Assembly (NCBI GenBank): GCA_965208835.1
Contig: OZ242358.1
Location: 1,728,001 to 1,792,000, forward strand
DNA: 64,000 nt
Source of the DNA: Candidatus Latescibacterota bacterium
Lineage (GTDB): Bacteria; Latescibacterota; UBA2968; GCA-2709665
Direction: 5' to 3'
Both the position numbers and the translations under genes were made by a program. The notes beneath the pieces are model-generated. The model saw nothing but the letters and a program-made list of their open reading frames with translations, was not told where the DNA came from and did not search any database. Of this stretch, positions 21,791 to 30,599 are shown piece after piece; positions within the stretch are counted from its first letter, which is position 1, and every line of letters starts with the position of its first letter.

Positions 21791-22528
21791 ATGCTGATGC
21801 AGATCTCGTCTTCCGTATACTGCTGGTCCGAGATACATGGCGCAGCCAGGAATGAGCCCTATCCGTGGAACAGCTTTGTGATCCGGACCAATCACGGAGA
21901 CGACCTCGTCCTTGTCGATCCGCTCCCGCTCCCGGCTGAAGATGCGAGGGGGATCGAAGCCATGGGTAAACCTGCGCATATTCTTCTGACCTGCGAGTAC
22001 CACCTGCGCGAATCGGAAGCATTCAGGGATCGATGGGGATGCGACATTCACTTGCACGTGGACGGTTTGGATTATTCTGAGGTGACGATTGACGGGGCGT
22101 TTCTGGACGGAGACCTGCTGTGGGACCGGATCGAAGTGATCCATATTCCCGATGCCTACCATCCCGATGAGGTCGCGTTTATGGTACACGGAGAGGGAAA
22201 TACGATGATCGTGGGAGACGCGGTCTGCGGGGGCAGGAAGGATCGAGGCATACCGGACGGCGAAATCTGGATCAACGCCCCCGAGTACATCGTCGCCGAT
22301 ATGTCAAGCGCGCGAGATTCGCTGCGCAAGCTGGCCGGTCATTCATTCGAGAGAATGGTTTTCGGACATGGATCACCCATCCTGCGTGCAGCCAGCGACC
22401 GGTTCAGGGCGTTCCTGGAAGATAATGAGGCCTGGGCGAAACTGGAATCCGAAAGCGCCGAGAGAACGAACCCCGCATCGCTGGAATTCATCCGGGAAAC
22501 GGAAGCGAGAAAATCCCGTGGAGGATGA
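21791..22528 (+). CDS. Metallo-beta-lactamase-fold protein
   Basis: ILLTCEYHLR (degenerate HxHxDH), IVGDA, FGHG. Confidence 0.75.
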   Translation: MLMQISSSVYCWSEIHGAARNEPYPWNSFVIRTNHGDDLVLVDPLPLPAEDARGIEAMGKPAHILLTCEYHLRESEAFRDRWGCDIHLHVDGLDYSEVTIDGAFLDGDLLWDRIEVIHIPDAYHPDEVAFMVHGEGNTMIVGDAVCGGRKDRGIPDGEIWINAPEYIVADMSSARDSLRKLAGHSFERMVFGHGSPILRAASDRFRAFLEDNEAWAKLESESAERTNPASLEFIRETEARKSRGG

Positions 22529-22627
22529 AGGCGAGGGGGCCGGGGTAGTGATACCCGGGATCGAGGGCAATTCCTCGCCGCACGGAATCTGCAGGGGCGA
22601 CCGGCCGGCGCGCCATCTCCAGGGTGG

Positions 22628-22652
22628 GTAGGGGCAACCCTTGTGGTTGCCC
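22628..22652 (+). repeat. GTAG-type REP palindrome
   Basis: GTAGGGGCAACCCTTGTGGTTGCCC. Confidence 0.75.
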
Positions 22653-22733
22653 GGCCATCAGGGAGCGGCTAAGGTCCATTCATGTAAATTTCCTATGCAA
22701 AGATGCATAACAGGACAAAAAGGAGGATTCCCC

Positions 22734-23129
22734 GTGCCTCAGAACACCGGCTTCGGCCTGTCCGTGATCGGGCAGATTTCGGTAACCGTTCAGGACCTCG
22801 ACCGGGCGGTCGCATTTTACCGCGATAAACTTGGCATGCAGTTCCTGTTCCGCGTTCCGGGGATGGCCTTTTTCAATTGCTCGGGCGTCCGGCTTCTGCT
22901 CGGTCTGTCGGAGGATGAATCGGCGGACGTGCACGCTTCAGTGATCTATTACAAGGTCGACAACCTCGAAGGCACATGTGAGGAACTGCGTTCGCGCGGT
23001 GTCGATTTCGAGAGTGAGCCTCACAAGATTGCCGATATGCCCGACCATGAGCTGTGGATGGCGTTCTTCAGGGACTCCGAGATGAATCTGATGGCGCTGA
23101 TGGCCGAGAAGCCGAGAGAGGACCATTAG
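22734..23129 (+). CDS. VOC/glyoxalase family protein
   Basis: IGQISVTVQDLDRAVAFYRDKLG, WMAFFRD.E.N; AGGAGG RBS before GTG. Confidence 0.9.
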   Translation: MPQNTGFGLSVIGQISVTVQDLDRAVAFYRDKLGMQFLFRVPGMAFFNCSGVRLLLGLSEDESADVHASVIYYKVDNLEGTCEELRSRGVDFESEPHKIADMPDHELWMAFFRDSEMNLMALMAEKPREDH

Positions 23130-23324
23130 CCTCAATCCGAAAGAAACTGCAACGCGGCGACGCGATAAAACCCTCCGAAACGGGGCAATATCGACGTATG
23201 GAATGACGTTTTTTCCCTTCACGTCCAGTGACTTGGTGTATCCTGGTAATCCGCCGTTTAATCGCCTTTATTTACAAGCACATATTTGAATTAACGTCAC
23301 CAAAGACTTACGAATCAAGGTTAG
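23126..23324. mobile_element. 199-bp MITE, copy 1
   Basis: Highly similar to 54459-54657; bounded by TTAG direct repeats; imperfect TIR CCTCAATCC/GAATCAAGG. Confidence 0.85.
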
Positions 23325-23351
23325 TCGCCGCACTCCAGACGGAGCAGACCG

Positions 23352-23807
23352 GTGGATCAAATCGAAGAACTGTCGTTTTCATTTCGCTGCGTCATCGATA
23401 AGCCCGTGGCCGAGGTCTTCGATGCCGTCACGGGCAGGACGGCGATCAGCACCTACTTCACCGATGACGCCAGCGCGGGACTGGATGCCGGGCGAACGGT
23501 TAATTGGCGATTCGGCGACGTCGAGGTGGACGTCGCGGTAGAGGAGGTGATCCGCAACAGGAGAGTCGTCTGCACCTGGCCCGCCTGCAACGACGTCGGT
23601 TACAGGACGCGCTTCGTGTTCGATTTCGAAGCGCTGAACGGCGGAACGAGGATTTCGGTGAGCGAATCCGGATGGCGGCCCGACCGGGACGGGATCGACA
23701 GCGCTTTCGATCAGTGTTCGGGCTGGACGCATTTCTTCGCGAGCCTGAAGGCACGGCTTGAATACGACGTGGACCTCAAACGCTTCTACGAACATGATGA
23801 TGGCTGA
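23352..23807 (+). CDS. SRPBCC/AHSA1 domain protein
   Basis: PVAEVFDA, T.ISVSESGW, GWTHFFASLKA.LE. Confidence 0.85.
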   Translation: MDQIEELSFSFRCVIDKPVAEVFDAVTGRTAISTYFTDDASAGLDAGRTVNWRFGDVEVDVAVEEVIRNRRVVCTWPACNDVGYRTRFVFDFEALNGGTRISVSESGWRPDRDGIDSAFDQCSGWTHFFASLKARLEYDVDLKRFYEHDDG

Positions 23808-24085: not shown

Positions 24086-24574
24086 TCAGTCCCGTCCGGA
24101 AGGCGGATCCGCCGGACCTGAGGCTCGCCGCAGACCGCGCCAGATCGCGAGGATCAGCATGGGAATGCCGACCAGAACCAGAAACGGGACGAGCGCGTAG
24201 ATGACCACCATGTGGGGTCCGAGCAAGCCGCCCAGAAGGCTGAACAGGACCGCAAGCGGCGTTGCGATCGCCAACCCGACCAGAATCCAGACCCTGGGGG
24301 TACCGCTGACGCCCCTCAATAGGTGCTGCGCGAGCAATCCTATCAACGCGCCGGCGATAAAAAACAGAGCCAGGCCGGACAGGATGCCCGGAAGCGCAAG
24401 AAGCAACCCGAACGGGTCGGAGTGATGCATCGTGCCGAAACGAATAACGGCCACCAGCACCTGAAGAATGCACAGCCCCAGACCGAACCACACCGGTAGC
24501 TTCCAGTAGTCCCACGAGCGACGGTTTGGCGCTTCCGGTTGACCTGTAGCGGCGGTTCCGTCGGCGTGTTCCAT
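24086..24574 (-). CDS. Hypothetical 4-TM membrane protein
   Basis: GGAGG RBS; four hydrophobic segments. Confidence 0.65.
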   Translation of the reverse strand: MEHADGTAATGQPEAPNRRSWDYWKLPVWFGLGLCILQVLVAVIRFGTMHHSDPFGLLLALPGILSGLALFFIAGALIGLLAQHLLRGVSGTPRVWILVGLAIATPLAVLFSLLGGLLGPHMVVIYALVPFLVLVGIPMLILAIWRGLRRASGPADPPSGRD

Positions 24575-24679
24575 GGCAGTGATCCTCCGTCGGTTTCGAT
24601 GCAACGAACGGAAGGGTTTCCGTCCGACTGAAAGAACGTCGTGCTCAGGGAGCGGCGTCCCTGGATGGCAGATGAGACA

Positions 24680-24860
24680 TTACACTCGCTTCCCCGGAAA
24701 ATCGAAAAAGGTGTCCGGAAAGGGTCCCATCTGCGAGTGAAAAGTGGCACCATTCACTGTCACAATTGACAAAGCCGTGTCGTTCCATCAACGCCTTCAG
24801 CAATTGACGGTTGCGTTTTTTGTCGTTCGGCAATCCGGGAATCCGCCGCACGAAATGAAC
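24680..24860 (-). pseudogene. 3' remnant of VanX/DdpX D-Ala-D-Ala dipeptidase (M15D)
   Basis: NRQLLKALMERHGFVN..SEWCHFSL, then after a frameshift PFPDTFFDFPGKRV*. Confidence 0.7.
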
Positions 24861-24994
24861 CTTTGGCCCCCCGGTCGCGCCTTGCAGGATAGAGGAAATG
24901 CGATTGAATGTATGTTCTGTGAAATGCCACAGAAAAAACCTCGCAGCGTGTGAAGTGACTTGACGTTTCGCCAGGATCTTTGGGAGAGAAAGCC

Positions 24995-25816
24995 ATGATA
25001 CTCGAAAACGAAACGATAGCAAATCATCCGTTTCCGCTGACAAGGCCGGATGTCACAATACTCGAGAGTTCCGAGAAGATAGACGAGATTGATTGCAAGG
25101 AGCTGCAGTGGTGGTTCGCCATTCCGAAACTGTGCGAACACTGCCTTTGGGCAGCCTATGAGTCCGAAACGTTGGCGTTAACCGCGGTCGTCGAGATTGT
25201 ATCCACTGTTCCTGCGACGATCCGGGACATCGACTGCGTCGAACTCCGATTGAGAGAATGGTCGGCTCGTGACCATTGGCCGATGGACTTTAACCCTGGT
25301 CTCATGTACGCACTGCTGGACGAACAGCAGGCGAGGTGGCTTTCCGTCGTCAAGACCCGAGATGGAAGACGCGTCTTTGAAACCGTGGGGGACAAATGGT
25401 TTGAGGAGAACTGGGGGGGAACGATGAGGCGCCGAATTGTAGATGATCGTCGCTACCGACGCCAACCCGATGGCTCGTATAAGACTGGCAACGGTACAGG
25501 GATAGGTGCAGGGACCTACGATGTAACGATCGGCGGAAATTCTTTTTGTTGTCTCCGTGTATTGGAAGCCGACCTTGCCGAACCGAACGGCGGCGAACTT
25601 GTGGAGGCATTCATTGAGCGCGGAGGGCGGACCGTGTTCTTTAGACGGTACGATGGTCAGTTCTACCGAGACGGCGATCTGGTCAGGAAGTATCCGGACA
25701 ATCGCCGAATCGTCATCAACGACACGGTGTATGTGCATCATGACTGCAGCGGGCGGGCTCACGATACAATCACGCAATATGCTCTGCAACCTGCTCGCTC
25801 GGACGATTGCCAGTAA
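24995..25816 (+). CDS. Hypothetical protein, paralogue of the C-terminal domain of the adjacent sigma factor
   Basis: Collinear motifs shared with 26413-27243. Confidence 0.8.
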   Translation: MILENETIANHPFPLTRPDVTILESSEKIDEIDCKELQWWFAIPKLCEHCLWAAYESETLALTAVVEIVSTVPATIRDIDCVELRLREWSARDHWPMDFNPGLMYALLDEQQARWLSVVKTRDGRRVFETVGDKWFEENWGGTMRRRIVDDRRYRRQPDGSYKTGNGTGIGAGTYDVTIGGNSFCCLRVLEADLAEPNGGELVEAFIERGGRTVFFRRYDGQFYRDGDLVRKYPDNRRIVINDTVYVHHDCSGRAHDTITQYALQPARSDDCQ

Positions 25817-25857
25817 CTGCGATTGAGGTGCACAGCGCACAATACAGCGGTTTTCGA

Positions 25858-27243
25858 ATGACAAATCCACACGACCAACAACTGGCGAAGCGGGTTCTGG
25901 AGGGCAGCGAGGCCGCCTTCGTGACTCTCATCCGACGCTACGAGCGCGTCCTGGCCGGGTTGATCCGTTCCCGTATCGGTTCCGGCGAACAGGTGCGGGA
26001 CGTGATGCAGGAAACCCTTGTCCACGCCTGGTGCGGCCTGCGACGGGCCACGCCGCGTGACGTGCGTCCGTGGTTGCTGCAGGTGGCCCGAAACCGCTGC
26101 CGCGATTACTTCAGGTCGCCCCAGCGCCGCGAACTGTACGTCGGGAGCGAAGTCCTGACGCCGCTGGTCAACCGCAGCGGGCTCGCGCAGTCACGGGAGC
26201 GGGAGGCCGCCATGGCTATCCTGGAAGCCATGGACGAGGTACCCGAACGCGAGAGGGCCGCGCTGCGCGCGTTCTACGTCGACGGTCTGAGCATCGCCGA
26301 AATCGCCGCCCGCCACCGCAGTCCCGACGGCACGGTCAAGCGGCGTCTCTCGTACGGCCGCGACCGGATCCGAAGAGCCATGGGAATCACCCCAACGAGG
26401 AGGAAGACCGACATGAAAGCAAGACAACAAGACTTTCCGCGACATCGCCCCGAGATTCGCATTCACCCCAGCGCGGAGAAATCCCTCCGTGTCGATTTCA
26501 CGGAAATGGCGTGGTGGTTTGTCGTGCCGGTGGTGGGTGACAGGACCGGATGGGGCATGTACGATCGTTTGGACGACCCTGACGAGTCGTGGTGCTTGAC
26601 TGAAACGGTATGGCTCACGGCCCATCGTCCTGCGGTGATCCACGGCCGATCATGCGTCGAGGTGGAGGTGGAGGAATTGACGGCCGAAAAGACGCGCCCA
26701 CAACGAAAGTACTGCATCACAAGGGTATGGGGCCACCTGGCCGACGACGAGGTAGAGTGGATCGCCGTGGAATCGACAAAGCCCGACGGCGTGAGTGAAC
26801 TGGAGACGTTTCTGGACGATAGATTCCACGACGACTGGTGGGGTTCACGGCGCGTCGTCGAGGACTGCAAATGCTTGTCCGAACGGGCCGATGGCACCTG
26901 GGTCAGACAGCCAGATACACCCGCCTTCACAGGCACGAGCGTGTTCGACGTCCACGTCGGCGGGCGTCAGTTCACCTGCTTGCGGGTCATTGACCTCGAT
27001 CAAAACGCCACTGAGCATGACAATTTGATAGAGGCCTATATCACCCCCGCCGGACGCACCGTGCTGTGCCGTCGTTACAACGGAAGCCGCTGGGGCAAGA
27101 AAGACGCCCCGCCGCACAACCAGGGCGAAGCGATGACATGGGAAGAGGAACTGCCGGAGAACGACCGCATCGTCATCGACGGGGTGACCTACGTGCACTG
27201 GTACGACAGGTTGTCTGCAGCGGCGTGCGGTATCGAGGATTGA
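25858..27243 (+). CDS. ECF sigma factor with ~275-aa C-terminal extension
   Basis: Region 2 DVMQETL..AW...WLLQVARNRCRD; region 4 GLSIAEIA...GTVKRRL. Confidence 0.9.
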   Translation: MTNPHDQQLAKRVLEGSEAAFVTLIRRYERVLAGLIRSRIGSGEQVRDVMQETLVHAWCGLRRATPRDVRPWLLQVARNRCRDYFRSPQRRELYVGSEVLTPLVNRSGLAQSREREAAMAILEAMDEVPERERAALRAFYVDGLSIAEIAARHRSPDGTVKRRLSYGRDRIRRAMGITPTRRKTDMKARQQDFPRHRPEIRIHPSAEKSLRVDFTEMAWWFVVPVVGDRTGWGMYDRLDDPDESWCLTETVWLTAHRPAVIHGRSCVEVEVEELTAEKTRPQRKYCITRVWGHLADDEVEWIAVESTKPDGVSELETFLDDRFHDDWWGSRRVVEDCKCLSERADGTWVRQPDTPAFTGTSVFDVHVGGRQFTCLRVIDLDQNATEHDNLIEAYITPAGRTVLCRRYNGSRWGKKDAPPHNQGEAMTWEEELPENDRIVIDGVTYVHWYDRLSAAACGIED

Positions 27244-27270
27244 CGGACACAGATCGTGCCTGACGACAGT

Positions 27271-27831
27271 CTATCGCACTCGGCGGTAGGTCATCGTATG
27301 AGACATGGTCTGCTTGCCACCCTCGTACATCGTCCAGGTCTGAGACATCTCGTCGGGGCCGTTGAAAGCGATCGAGACGGAATGCATGTGCGACTCGTCG
27401 GGCGAATCGAGAGAACCCTCGACCAGCTCTAGCGCGATCACCCCGTCGGTGGATTTTGCCAGGCTCATCTGCGGCTGATTGCCCTTCGCGCAATAGTGGG
27501 TCATCCACAGCCTGCCGCCGCGGTCGTGGTAGACGGAGATCATCTCCTTTGGCGTGTCCGGGAAGTTGCGCTCGACGATGACGCTGCCATTGGCCGCCAC
27601 CCGGTACTCCGTTGCAACCGTGGTCATCGCGCCCTTCCCGCCCCCGGGCATCGGCATCTCGGACTCCCAGCGCCCGACCAGCGTTTTCAGCCGCTCGAAT
27701 TCCGCCGAGCCGGCGTGTGCTCCAGCCTGCTTTTCTGCCTCTCCTTCCGGTTTACCCCCGTTTTCCCCTGCAAAAGCCGAAAAAGCGAAAATTGCAATAA
27801 GGACCGGCAGAACGAGTGTGGCTCTCTTCAT
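27271..27831 (-). CDS. Secreted hypothetical protein (lipocalin/DUF1579-like barrel)
   Basis: Signal peptide; FERLKTLVGRW, MTHYCA.GNQP. Confidence 0.7.
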   Translation of the reverse strand: MKRATLVLPVLIAIFAFSAFAGENGGKPEGEAEKQAGAHAGSAEFERLKTLVGRWESEMPMPGGGKGAMTTVATEYRVAANGSVIVERNFPDTPKEMISVYHDRGGRLWMTHYCAKGNQPQMSLAKSTDGVIALELVEGSLDSPDESHMHSVSIAFNGPDEMSQTWTMYEGGKQTMSHTMTYRRVR

Positions 27832-27938
27832 TATGGATTGCTCCTTTCGGCAGTGCAACAAAAACACAATTGAAATGAGGATATTGGCGACGGCAATTAC
27901 CTAACAAATCCCGGATTCGTCTCGAGTCCTTCCTCCTG

Positions 27939-28534: not shown

Positions 28535-28609
28535 TGGTGACCCCGAGGGGAGTCGAACCCCCGTTGCCGGGTTGAAAACCCGGTGTCCTAACCACTGAAC
28601 GACGGGGTC
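28535..28609 (-). tRNA. tRNA-Glu(UUC)
   Basis: Cloverleaf GACCCCG..CCGGG-TTTTCAA-CCCGG..GGTTCGACT..CGGGGTCACCA. Confidence 0.96.
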
Positions 28610-28843: not shown

Positions 28844-28920
28844 GGGCGATTAGCTCAGATGGTTAGAGCGCTGGTTTCACATACCAGAGGTCACTGGTTC
28901 GAGTCCAGTATCGCCCACCA
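28844..28920 (+). tRNA. tRNA-Val(CAC)
   Basis: GGGCGAT-TAGCTCAG..CTGGT-TTCACAT-ACCAG..GGTTCGAGT..ATCGCCCACCA. Confidence 0.96.
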
Positions 28921-30198: not shown

Positions 30199-30591
30199 GG
30201 CAAGCGGGCCGGATGGCCGCGCCCCTGCCAGTCCGCTGGTATGGGCGAGGAAAGTCCGAGCTCCACGGGGCAGGATGCTGGGTAACTCCCAGGCGGGGCA
30301 ACCCGAAGGAAAGTGCCACAGAAAACAGACCGCCAGCGGGCGAAACCACGGTTTCGTTGCGGGCAAGGGTGAAACGGCGGGGTAAGAGCCCACCGCGCTC
30401 CCGGAGACGGGAGCGGCACGGTAAACCCCATCCGGAGCAAGGCCAAATAGGAGCGGAGAGGCGGCCCGTCTCGCAATTACGCTCGGGTAGGCTGCGCAGA
30501 GGCGCCGGGCAACCGGCGTCCCAGATAAATGGCCATCCGTTCGGCGTGTATTGCGCCGGACGACAGAACTCGGCTTACAGGCCCGCTTGCC
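30199..30591 (+). ncRNA. rnpB: RNase P RNA, type A
   Basis: GAGGAAAGTCCGAGC, AGTGCCACAGAAAA, GGTAAACCCC, ACAGAACTCGGCTTAC; P1 helix GGCAAGCGGGCC/GGCCCGCTTGCC. Confidence 0.96.
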
Positions 30592-30599
30592 TGAATTAC

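Follow-up and report, generated by a model that had tools for sequence, protein, structure and literature searches.

When an extracytoplasmic function (ECF) sigma factor carries an extra C-terminal domain, and a free-standing copy of that domain is encoded immediately upstream, the question arises whether the two proteins form one regulatory system or whether the sigma factor works alone. Such a pair is found in a 64,000-nt stretch of Candidatus Latescibacterota DNA, called the window hereafter, in which two plus-strand open reading frames (ORFs) fill positions 24995-27243. The first one, ORF A, encodes the free protein, and the second one the sigma factor fused to its paralogue. The initial annotation had favoured a soluble two-protein system. 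The reading that we prefer, to which we give a probability of about 55%, is that of a one-protein sensor sigma factor that is gated by its tail and amplifies itself, the free paralogue being an output of the operon in a few species.

The homology of the two proteins is plain. BLASTP aligns ORF A residues 13-248 with 255 residues of the sigma protein (210-464 in the numbering of the translation that starts at TTG) with 83/263 identities (32%, E 7e-35), and all of the motifs listed in the initial annotation are visible in the alignment. A profile of the domain matches residues 204-477 of the same translation. The sigma ORF is open from the TTG at 25807; the gene start was set at the ATG at 25858, which encodes the first residue of MTNPHDQQ, because relatives of 461-466 aa start at this methionine. 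For ORF A the most likely start is the ATG at 24995, with a purine-rich GGGAGAG 7-13 nt upstream, and the stop codon ends at 25816.

The N-terminal part of the fusion is an ECF sigma factor, as had been proposed. Indeed, the Pfam families Sigma70_r2 and Sigma70_r4_2 match with 47.4 and 44.4 bits respectively (E values in Table 1), and NCBIfam TIGR02937 (sigma70-ECF) reaches 76.6 bits against a cut-off of 42.9, the N-terminal 190 residues corresponding to the ECF core. None of the NCBIfam equivalog or subfamily models reaches its own cut-off for the sigma factor. Only the sigma-70 regions 2 and 4 were found, above the ECF profile thresholds, which is the definition of the ECF class (group 4). 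A C-terminal extension is recognised as such when more than 50 aa follow sigma4 and are conserved in a clade; here about 270 aa follow residue 190, and 73 fused cores fall into one clade with a support of 95. A word-indexed search using the tail as query retrieved 103 clusters of sigma fusion homologues, mostly of 456-473 aa. In public records the fusion is called just 'sigma-70 family' and the relatives of ORF A are named 'hypothetical protein'.

In the genome from which the window comes, 12 ORFs match the sigma-core profile, and since six of them (478, 440, 455, 434, 381 and 622 aa) far exceed the length of a plain ECF sigma factor, C-terminal extensions are common in this organism. A second fusion of a sigma factor to the domain lies outside the window at C1:3306830-3308152 (L013 916-2238); it is 440 aa long and has no free copy alongside. 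Its neighbours are a VOC/glyoxalase gene, a Nudix-like ORF and an ankyrin-repeat gene, and VOC and ankyrin genes also flank the copy in the window.

The description of the tail as an unknown domain was supported. No Pfam or NCBIfam family matches ORF A or the tail, and Pfam searches with 53 family members taken singly gave only three single-member chance matches. DUF4178 was dismissed, its weak Pfam match (E 0.038) lying below the cut-off. A profile search of all Protein Data Bank (PDB) sequences returned nothing below E 0.6, and the protein atlas held no usable match for the free protein. The literature searched, including the available parts of PMC7826278 and PMC8999054, gave no account of the domain, which is no proof of its being unpublished, and the passages covered on C-terminal extensions in the supplement of PMC7826278 name no ECF group with a soluble beta extension of about 270 aa. 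An exhaustive phmmer search sizes the family at 249 clusters at 50% identity with E up to 1e-3, and 125 with E up to 1e-10. On these comparisons the domain family is new, and no curated family covers the domain. One of the phmmer matches, P0198 (2852 aa), contains 20 separate stretches that match residues 163-198 of the free protein, which form the GxGxYDVxIGxxxFxCLRV hairpin, and may consist of repeats of this beta-hairpin.

The AlphaFold2 model of ORF A, computed from a 53-row alignment, is all-beta and displays a mean predicted local distance difference test score (pLDDT) of 91.8 and a predicted template modelling score (pTM) of 0.90. A structural search with this model placed YmcC-like lipoproteins at the top (3fzx, Z 7.3, root-mean-square deviation 5.0, 164 residues aligned; 4fvs, Z 7.0), together with RseB (2v43, Z 6.4), MucB (6jau, Z 5.8), LolA (8cgm, Z 5.9), ependymin/EPDR1 (Z 5.9-6.3), LmcA (Z 6.2) and LprG (Z 4.4-4.7). 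The half-barrel matches cover residues ~27-267 of the model. With the tool used, Z values under 8 are in the common range, and Foldseek against the PDB gave only E ~1e-3 and TM ~0.3, again to YmcC-like lipoproteins. These middling scores weakly suggest that the predicted fold is a LolA-like unclosed antiparallel beta-barrel. All of the proteins matched have an unclosed beta-barrel, in which lipids or other hydrophobic ligands are carried. No signal peptide was seen by eye in the domain.

The arrangement of the domain relative to sigma genes was examined in trees and in metagenomes. In a domain tree of near-complete domains, 112 fused behind a sigma core and 79 free, the fused or free label changes at least 15 times, counting starred branches only. 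A metagenome scan that used a narrower family alignment as query yielded 80 loci, which were classified by profiles: 22 are fused, in 17 a plain ECF sigma gene lies immediately upstream in the same orientation (gap of -9 to 512 nt), 3 are truncated or possibly frameshifted, 28 are free with no sigma gene upstream where at least 700 nt were available, 8 are free with a flank too short to judge and 2 are partial. The sigma-core tree holds 103 cores, namely 77 fused, 12 split, 10 other ECF sigma factors of the genome under study and 4 other nearby ones. In this tree, 73 fused and 6 split cores make up a clade of 79 rows with a support of 95, which contains none of the other ECF sigma factors; hence fusion and fission took place within one ECF clade. 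The remaining 6 of the 12 split sigma factors form a clade of their own and head operons of the order sigma, zf-HC2, domain; in L116, for instance, the sigma gene is followed by those of a 96-aa zf-HC2 protein and of the domain protein, and L047 is similar. In the split form the domain can exist as a protein of its own, whose gene occupies the usual place of an anti-sigma gene. Because it is repeatedly linked to sigma genes, by fusion, in split form and in operons, we read it as most likely the regulatory or sensor module of the sigma factor.

Some ORFs of the family may derive from sigma fusions by disruption or truncation. In L016/L050 and L018/L051 (G119 and G126) and in L048 (G052), ORFs of 322 aa and 298 aa retain nothing of the sigma core but the end of region 4 before the domain, and in L048 a 129-aa region-2 fragment lies ~1.9 kb upstream.

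The initial annotation had also stated that no transmembrane anti-sigma gene adjoins the pair, and this holds in the narrower sense that none recognisable as such does. Among the window neighbours of the sigma gene, no zf-HC2 or other anti-sigma Pfam match was found, and beside the sigma genes of the main fused and split clade no anti-sigma-like gene was recognised either. A gene for a multi-pass membrane protein does however lie directly upstream of the pair on the opposite strand; it has no Pfam match, zf-HC2 included.

Upstream of the sigma genes a conserved element was found. In loci that lack the free gene, the motif GTGAACCTTT, followed by 13 variable bases and CGCCTTG, precedes the start codon of the sigma gene by about 30 nt. 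Over 28 distinct upstream regions TGAACC(TTT) and CGCCTT are invariant and 16 nt apart, a spacing that we take to be ECF promoter geometry. The motif is also present before the sigma gene of the split loci L076, L077 and L126, with a spacer of unrelated sequence. In the window it lies 111 nt upstream of ORF A, and in all 5 genomes that bear the pair it precedes the free gene and does not lie in the gap between the two. A strict regular expression finds it once in the 5.18-Mb genome, the window giving 1 match against 0.01 expected, and with nhmmer it is the only significant match in the same genome (E 9e-14, the next at E 0.35). A loose form of the pattern has 87 matches in the genome, which were treated as background. 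A consensus scan of the 41-nt spacer between the two genes revealed no sigma-70-type promoter and no terminator-like site, which is a weak negative. From its position and its uniqueness, the motif is probably a promoter that the sigma factor positively autoregulates, and the simplest reading is that the free gene and the sigma gene are probably co-transcribed from it.

Alignment of the upstream regions also shows how the free gene is placed. The similarity to loci without a free gene continues through the old ATG at 24908 and then breaks, and the GAATG found there is repeated at the present sigma start (25856-25860), so that the repeat flanks the segment. Indeed, a segment of ~950 nt with ORF A is located exactly between the sigma leader and the sigma coding sequence, with the same junctions in all 5 pair-bearing genomes.

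The domain occurs, with E up to 1e-10, in 43 of 168 genomes of the phylum, and the 14 other genomes of the genus are all among them. Free and fused copies are adjacent in 5 of the 15 genus genomes (G000, G047, G048, G052 and G055, the loci L001, L007 and L010 included); the other 10 have sigma-linked copies only, with a sigma fusion and no free copy, and most sigma-fusion genomes of the phylum lack a free copy as well. Orthologues of ORF A away from a fusion occur in G136, G101 and G106, and as a second copy in G047. Among their neighbours are APH, ANT(6), GNAT, ankyrin, HigB toxin and IS110 transposase genes; no sigma gene adjoins the stray copies L043, L044, L045 and L049, and none of the stray copies has the motif upstream, save for a loose match in L056 that chance could explain. 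In G060, a genome without any fusion, an ORF A orthologue (L046) is located directly upstream of a different ECF sigma gene, whose product has a tetratricopeptide repeat (TPR) tail. Of the metagenome loci bearing the signature of the free clade described below, 0/21 hold any sigma ORF in the fetched locus. Thus the conserved two-protein system of the initial annotation finds no support, given a pair in only 5/15 genus genomes and relatives of the free protein that, elsewhere, do not adjoin a sigma-domain fusion. Judged by its distribution and junctions, the pair is a lineage-specific operon capture, and direct partnering of the free protein with the sigma factor is unsupported.

The free gene is nonetheless not a local truncated duplicate, as the initial annotation would require: in the domain tree ORF A falls into all-free clades (6, 8 and 17 rows with supports of 97, 97 and 95) and the tail of its neighbour into all-fused ones. 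The clade of ORF A is an old branch of the fold family that evolves separately, so that the free protein is no copy of the sigma tail; it is marked by a D-C-T/S-G insert with C251 (12/12), by E201 (12/12, hydrophobic elsewhere), H256 (10/12, Tyr elsewhere) and C34 (11/12), C186 being also among the clade-specific positions. The insert and these Cys, His and Glu positions set the free clade apart from all sigma-linked forms, and they may represent an acquired polar, metal or catalytic site. Orthologues of ORF A show a dN/dS of 0.18-0.24, which corresponds to purifying selection. The synonymous divergence (dS) of ORF A to every orthologue is 0.31-0.44 regardless of species distance, as against 0.03 to 0.9 for the sigma gene. 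Furthermore, the comparison of window positions 24856-27848 with L001 4043-7040 in 100-nt bins gives a mosaic identity profile, with 96-100% in the sigma-fusion gene (25849-27248), 76-91% in the free gene (24955-25648) and 71-84% in the flanks. The mosaic profile and the flat dS of the free gene suggest that one of the two genes has recombined or been exchanged. Complex prediction for the full-length fusion with the free protein gave scores of 0.04 and 0.01 against a mark of 0.32 and weighs neither way.

According to the reading that we prefer, the fusion would be a cytoplasmic one-protein device made of an ECF core and an all-beta domain of about 270 residues. The tail would act as its regulatory or sensor module and gate the activity of sigma2 and sigma4 in response to a small, probably hydrophobic, cytoplasmic ligand, by analogy with ECF sigma factors controlled by C-terminal extensions. 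The sigma factor would amplify its own gene from the TGAACC-N16-CGCCTT promoter. In a few species of one genus the gene of the free paralogue would have been placed between the promoter with its leader and the sigma coding sequence, where it would head the operon, and its product would be an output of the sigma factor, possibly acting on the same class of ligand, rather than an obligatory protein partner.

Several observations weigh against this proposal. The operons of sigma, zf-HC2 and domain genes mean that a classical anti-sigma factor is also present in some lineages, and hence the domain need not be a direct regulator of the sigma factor everywhere. In the AlphaFold2 model of the full-length fusion (pLDDT 86.5, pTM 0.72) confidence is low in two linkers, residues 91-110 and 182-188, and with linkers this floppy and such a pTM no docking of the tail on the sigma core is established. 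All fold matches have Z values in the common range, which makes the case for ligand binding a weak one. No second convincing site of the motif was found in the genome by the strict and loose scans or by nhmmer, and no regulon beyond the operon was identified. Lastly, the event may have been an insertion of the free gene or else its deletion in 10/15 genomes, the GAATG repeat flanking the segment in either case.

The pair could be explained otherwise. The free paralogue could be a direct partner of the sigma factor, the two making a soluble two-protein switch: it would either form a heterodimer with the fused domain or bind the core, as a decoy or in the manner of a titrating anti-sigma factor. 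The adjacency of the genes, their probable co-transcription behind one promoter-like motif, the split forms, which show that family members can work as separate proteins beside a sigma factor, and the retention of the pair in 5 genomes with a free gene under purifying selection are all in line with such a switch. We consider it quite unlikely, however, in view of the 10/15 genus genomes and the majority of sigma-fusion genomes of the phylum that do without a free copy, of a free clade that is otherwise unlinked to sigma genes (0/21 signature loci, and the four stray copies without a sigma neighbour), of the divergence of the free protein at clade-specific positions and of its synonymous divergence, decoupled from that of the neighbouring sigma gene. 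The same decoupling, with the mosaic profile against L001, would suit a passenger, that is a free gene with an unrelated job, such as a metal- or thiol-dependent enzyme or binding protein, which landed in the sigma leader by chance and whose co-transcription would mean nothing for regulation. The varied accessory contexts of the orthologues (IS110, HigB, ANT(6), APH, GNAT, ankyrin) point the same way, as does the L043 orthologue, which comes from another family of the phylum and is 87% identical, compared to ~58-60% for sigma fusions at comparable distance. Yet the same placement and junctions are retained in 5 species, and the position of L046 directly upstream of the ECF sigma gene with a TPR tail hints at a recurring sigma link; we regard a passenger as unlikely.

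It could also be that the tail is no regulator at all and serves as an effector or targeting module (an enzyme, a tether, or an extra contact to DNA or RNA polymerase), while something else, such as the divergent membrane protein, would control the sigma factor. The full-length model with its pTM of 0.72, the membrane protein gene that adjoins and is syntenic in 10/11 loci, and the zf-HC2 anti-sigma gene located between sigma and domain genes in some lineages would all fit. Repeated fusion and fission with one sigma clade is, on the other hand, the pattern of regulatory extensions, and the main clade has no recognised anti-sigma-like gene beside the sigma gene, so that we hold such a tail to be improbable. 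The sensor sigma factor with a captured paralogue hence remains our preferred reading. A bolder version of it, which we put forward as doubtful, is that of an undescribed class of soluble ECF regulators that act in cis when fused or in trans from the +1 gene, sense a hydrophobic cytoplasmic ligand with a LolA-like half-barrel and have captured a paralogue that would bind or transform this ligand with its acquired Cys/His/Glu site, so that expression of the paralogue under the sigma factor would give negative feedback at the level of the ligand. If true, the locus would use one fold twice, as a sensor and as a sink.

Compared with known systems, the sigma factor resembles those with regulatory C-terminal extensions. 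ECF41-type sigma factors (SigJ and relatives) have a fused SnoaL-like C-terminal regulatory domain of ~120 aa according to the sections concerned of PMC8999054 and PMC7826278. On those accounts, what is shared is a soluble ECF sigma factor with no recognisable anti-sigma partner, a compact non-helical and potentially small-molecule-binding domain after sigma4 and, as would be expected here, autoregulation from an ECF-type promoter. The extension here differs in being of ~270 aa with no SnoaL_2 or other Pfam match; moreover, it is predicted to be a large beta half-barrel, and the domain is also known from orphan proteins and from separate genes downstream of a sigma gene. For SnoaL, neither the sigma factor nor the free protein gave a match (E up to 1), nor did any of 53 family members (E up to 0.01), and membership of ECF41, ECF56, ECF294 or ECF295 was rejected for want of a SnoaL_2-type domain in the extension. 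In ECF42, the relevant part of PMC8999054 describes a soluble TPR extension of ~200 aa that is needed for activity, and a conserved neighbour gene suspected to take part. As far as this description goes, a long soluble extension and a neighbouring gene are common to both, but the neighbour here is the extension's own paralogue and is present in a minority of genomes only, and ECF42 membership was rejected since there is no TPR match and the model is all-beta. A class I anti-sigma factor (ASD / zf-HC2), which has a helical anti-sigma domain at its N-terminus and often an HxxxCxxC zinc site, was likewise rejected for the free protein and for the tail, with no anti-sigma Pfam match and an all-beta model.

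RseB, MucB and LolA offer the best structural resemblance of the domain, with middling Z values, and RseB and MucB are ligand-sensing regulators in an ECF pathway. They share no sequence similarity with the domain (PDB profile E >= 0.6), and they are periplasmic whereas the domain is fused to a cytoplasmic sigma factor. By analogy, the system would work like those ECF sigma factors whose C-terminal extensions are regulatory, the extension domain itself being new and found in nature both fused and split. To the ECF extensions the case adds a large domain that lacks annotation and for which a confident fold is predicted. Its natural fused, split and anti-sigma-associated versions are ready-made comparisons for truncation and trans-complementation, and its candidate promoter is sharply defined. 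It also indicates that a free copy beside the fused domain need not be a conserved partner and can stem from a late operon capture in one lineage.

Table 1. Features of the locus, in the numbering of the 64,000-nt window.
Feature	Position	Strand	Remarks
Multi-pass membrane protein gene, divergent	24086..24604	-	172 aa; directly upstream of the pair; syntenic
ECF-type promoter-like motif	24856..24883	+	TGAACCTTT-N13-CGCCTT (TGAACC, 16 nt, CGCCTT); putative autoregulated operon promoter
Putative remnant of the ancestral sigma start context, with a 4-codon mini-ORF	24908..24922	+	GCGATTGAATG; left edge of the ~950-nt segment with the free gene
Free-standing domain protein (ORF A)	24995..25816	+	273 aa; member of the always-free clade, with D-C-T/S-G insert
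Intergenic spacer, free gene to sigma gene	25817..25857	+	41 nt; kept in other pair-bearing loci
ECF sigma factor fused to the C-terminal domain	25858..27243	+	461 aa
Sigma region 2	25927..26127	+	Pfam PF04542, E 1.7e-12; residues 41-107 of the TTG-started translation
Sigma region 4	26212..26367	+	Pfam PF08281, E 1.3e-11
C-terminal beta-rich domain	26434..27240	+	~270 aa; paralogue of the free protein; BLASTP, profile, all-beta AlphaFold2 model

The wider surroundings of the locus can be described briefly. Upstream of it, at 21791-23807, a syntenic trio encodes MBL-fold, VOC/bleomycin-resistance-like and AHSA1/SRPBCC proteins, and this trio, like the APH, ANT(6) and GNAT genes that adjoin stray free-gene copies, may give the surroundings a flavour of xenobiotic response. 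Downstream of the locus are a tRNA-Glu(ttc) gene at 28535-28609 on the minus strand, a tRNA-Val(cac) gene at 28844-28920 on the plus strand and a bacterial class A RNase P RNA at 30201-30593, also on the plus strand, which was detected with 298 bits.

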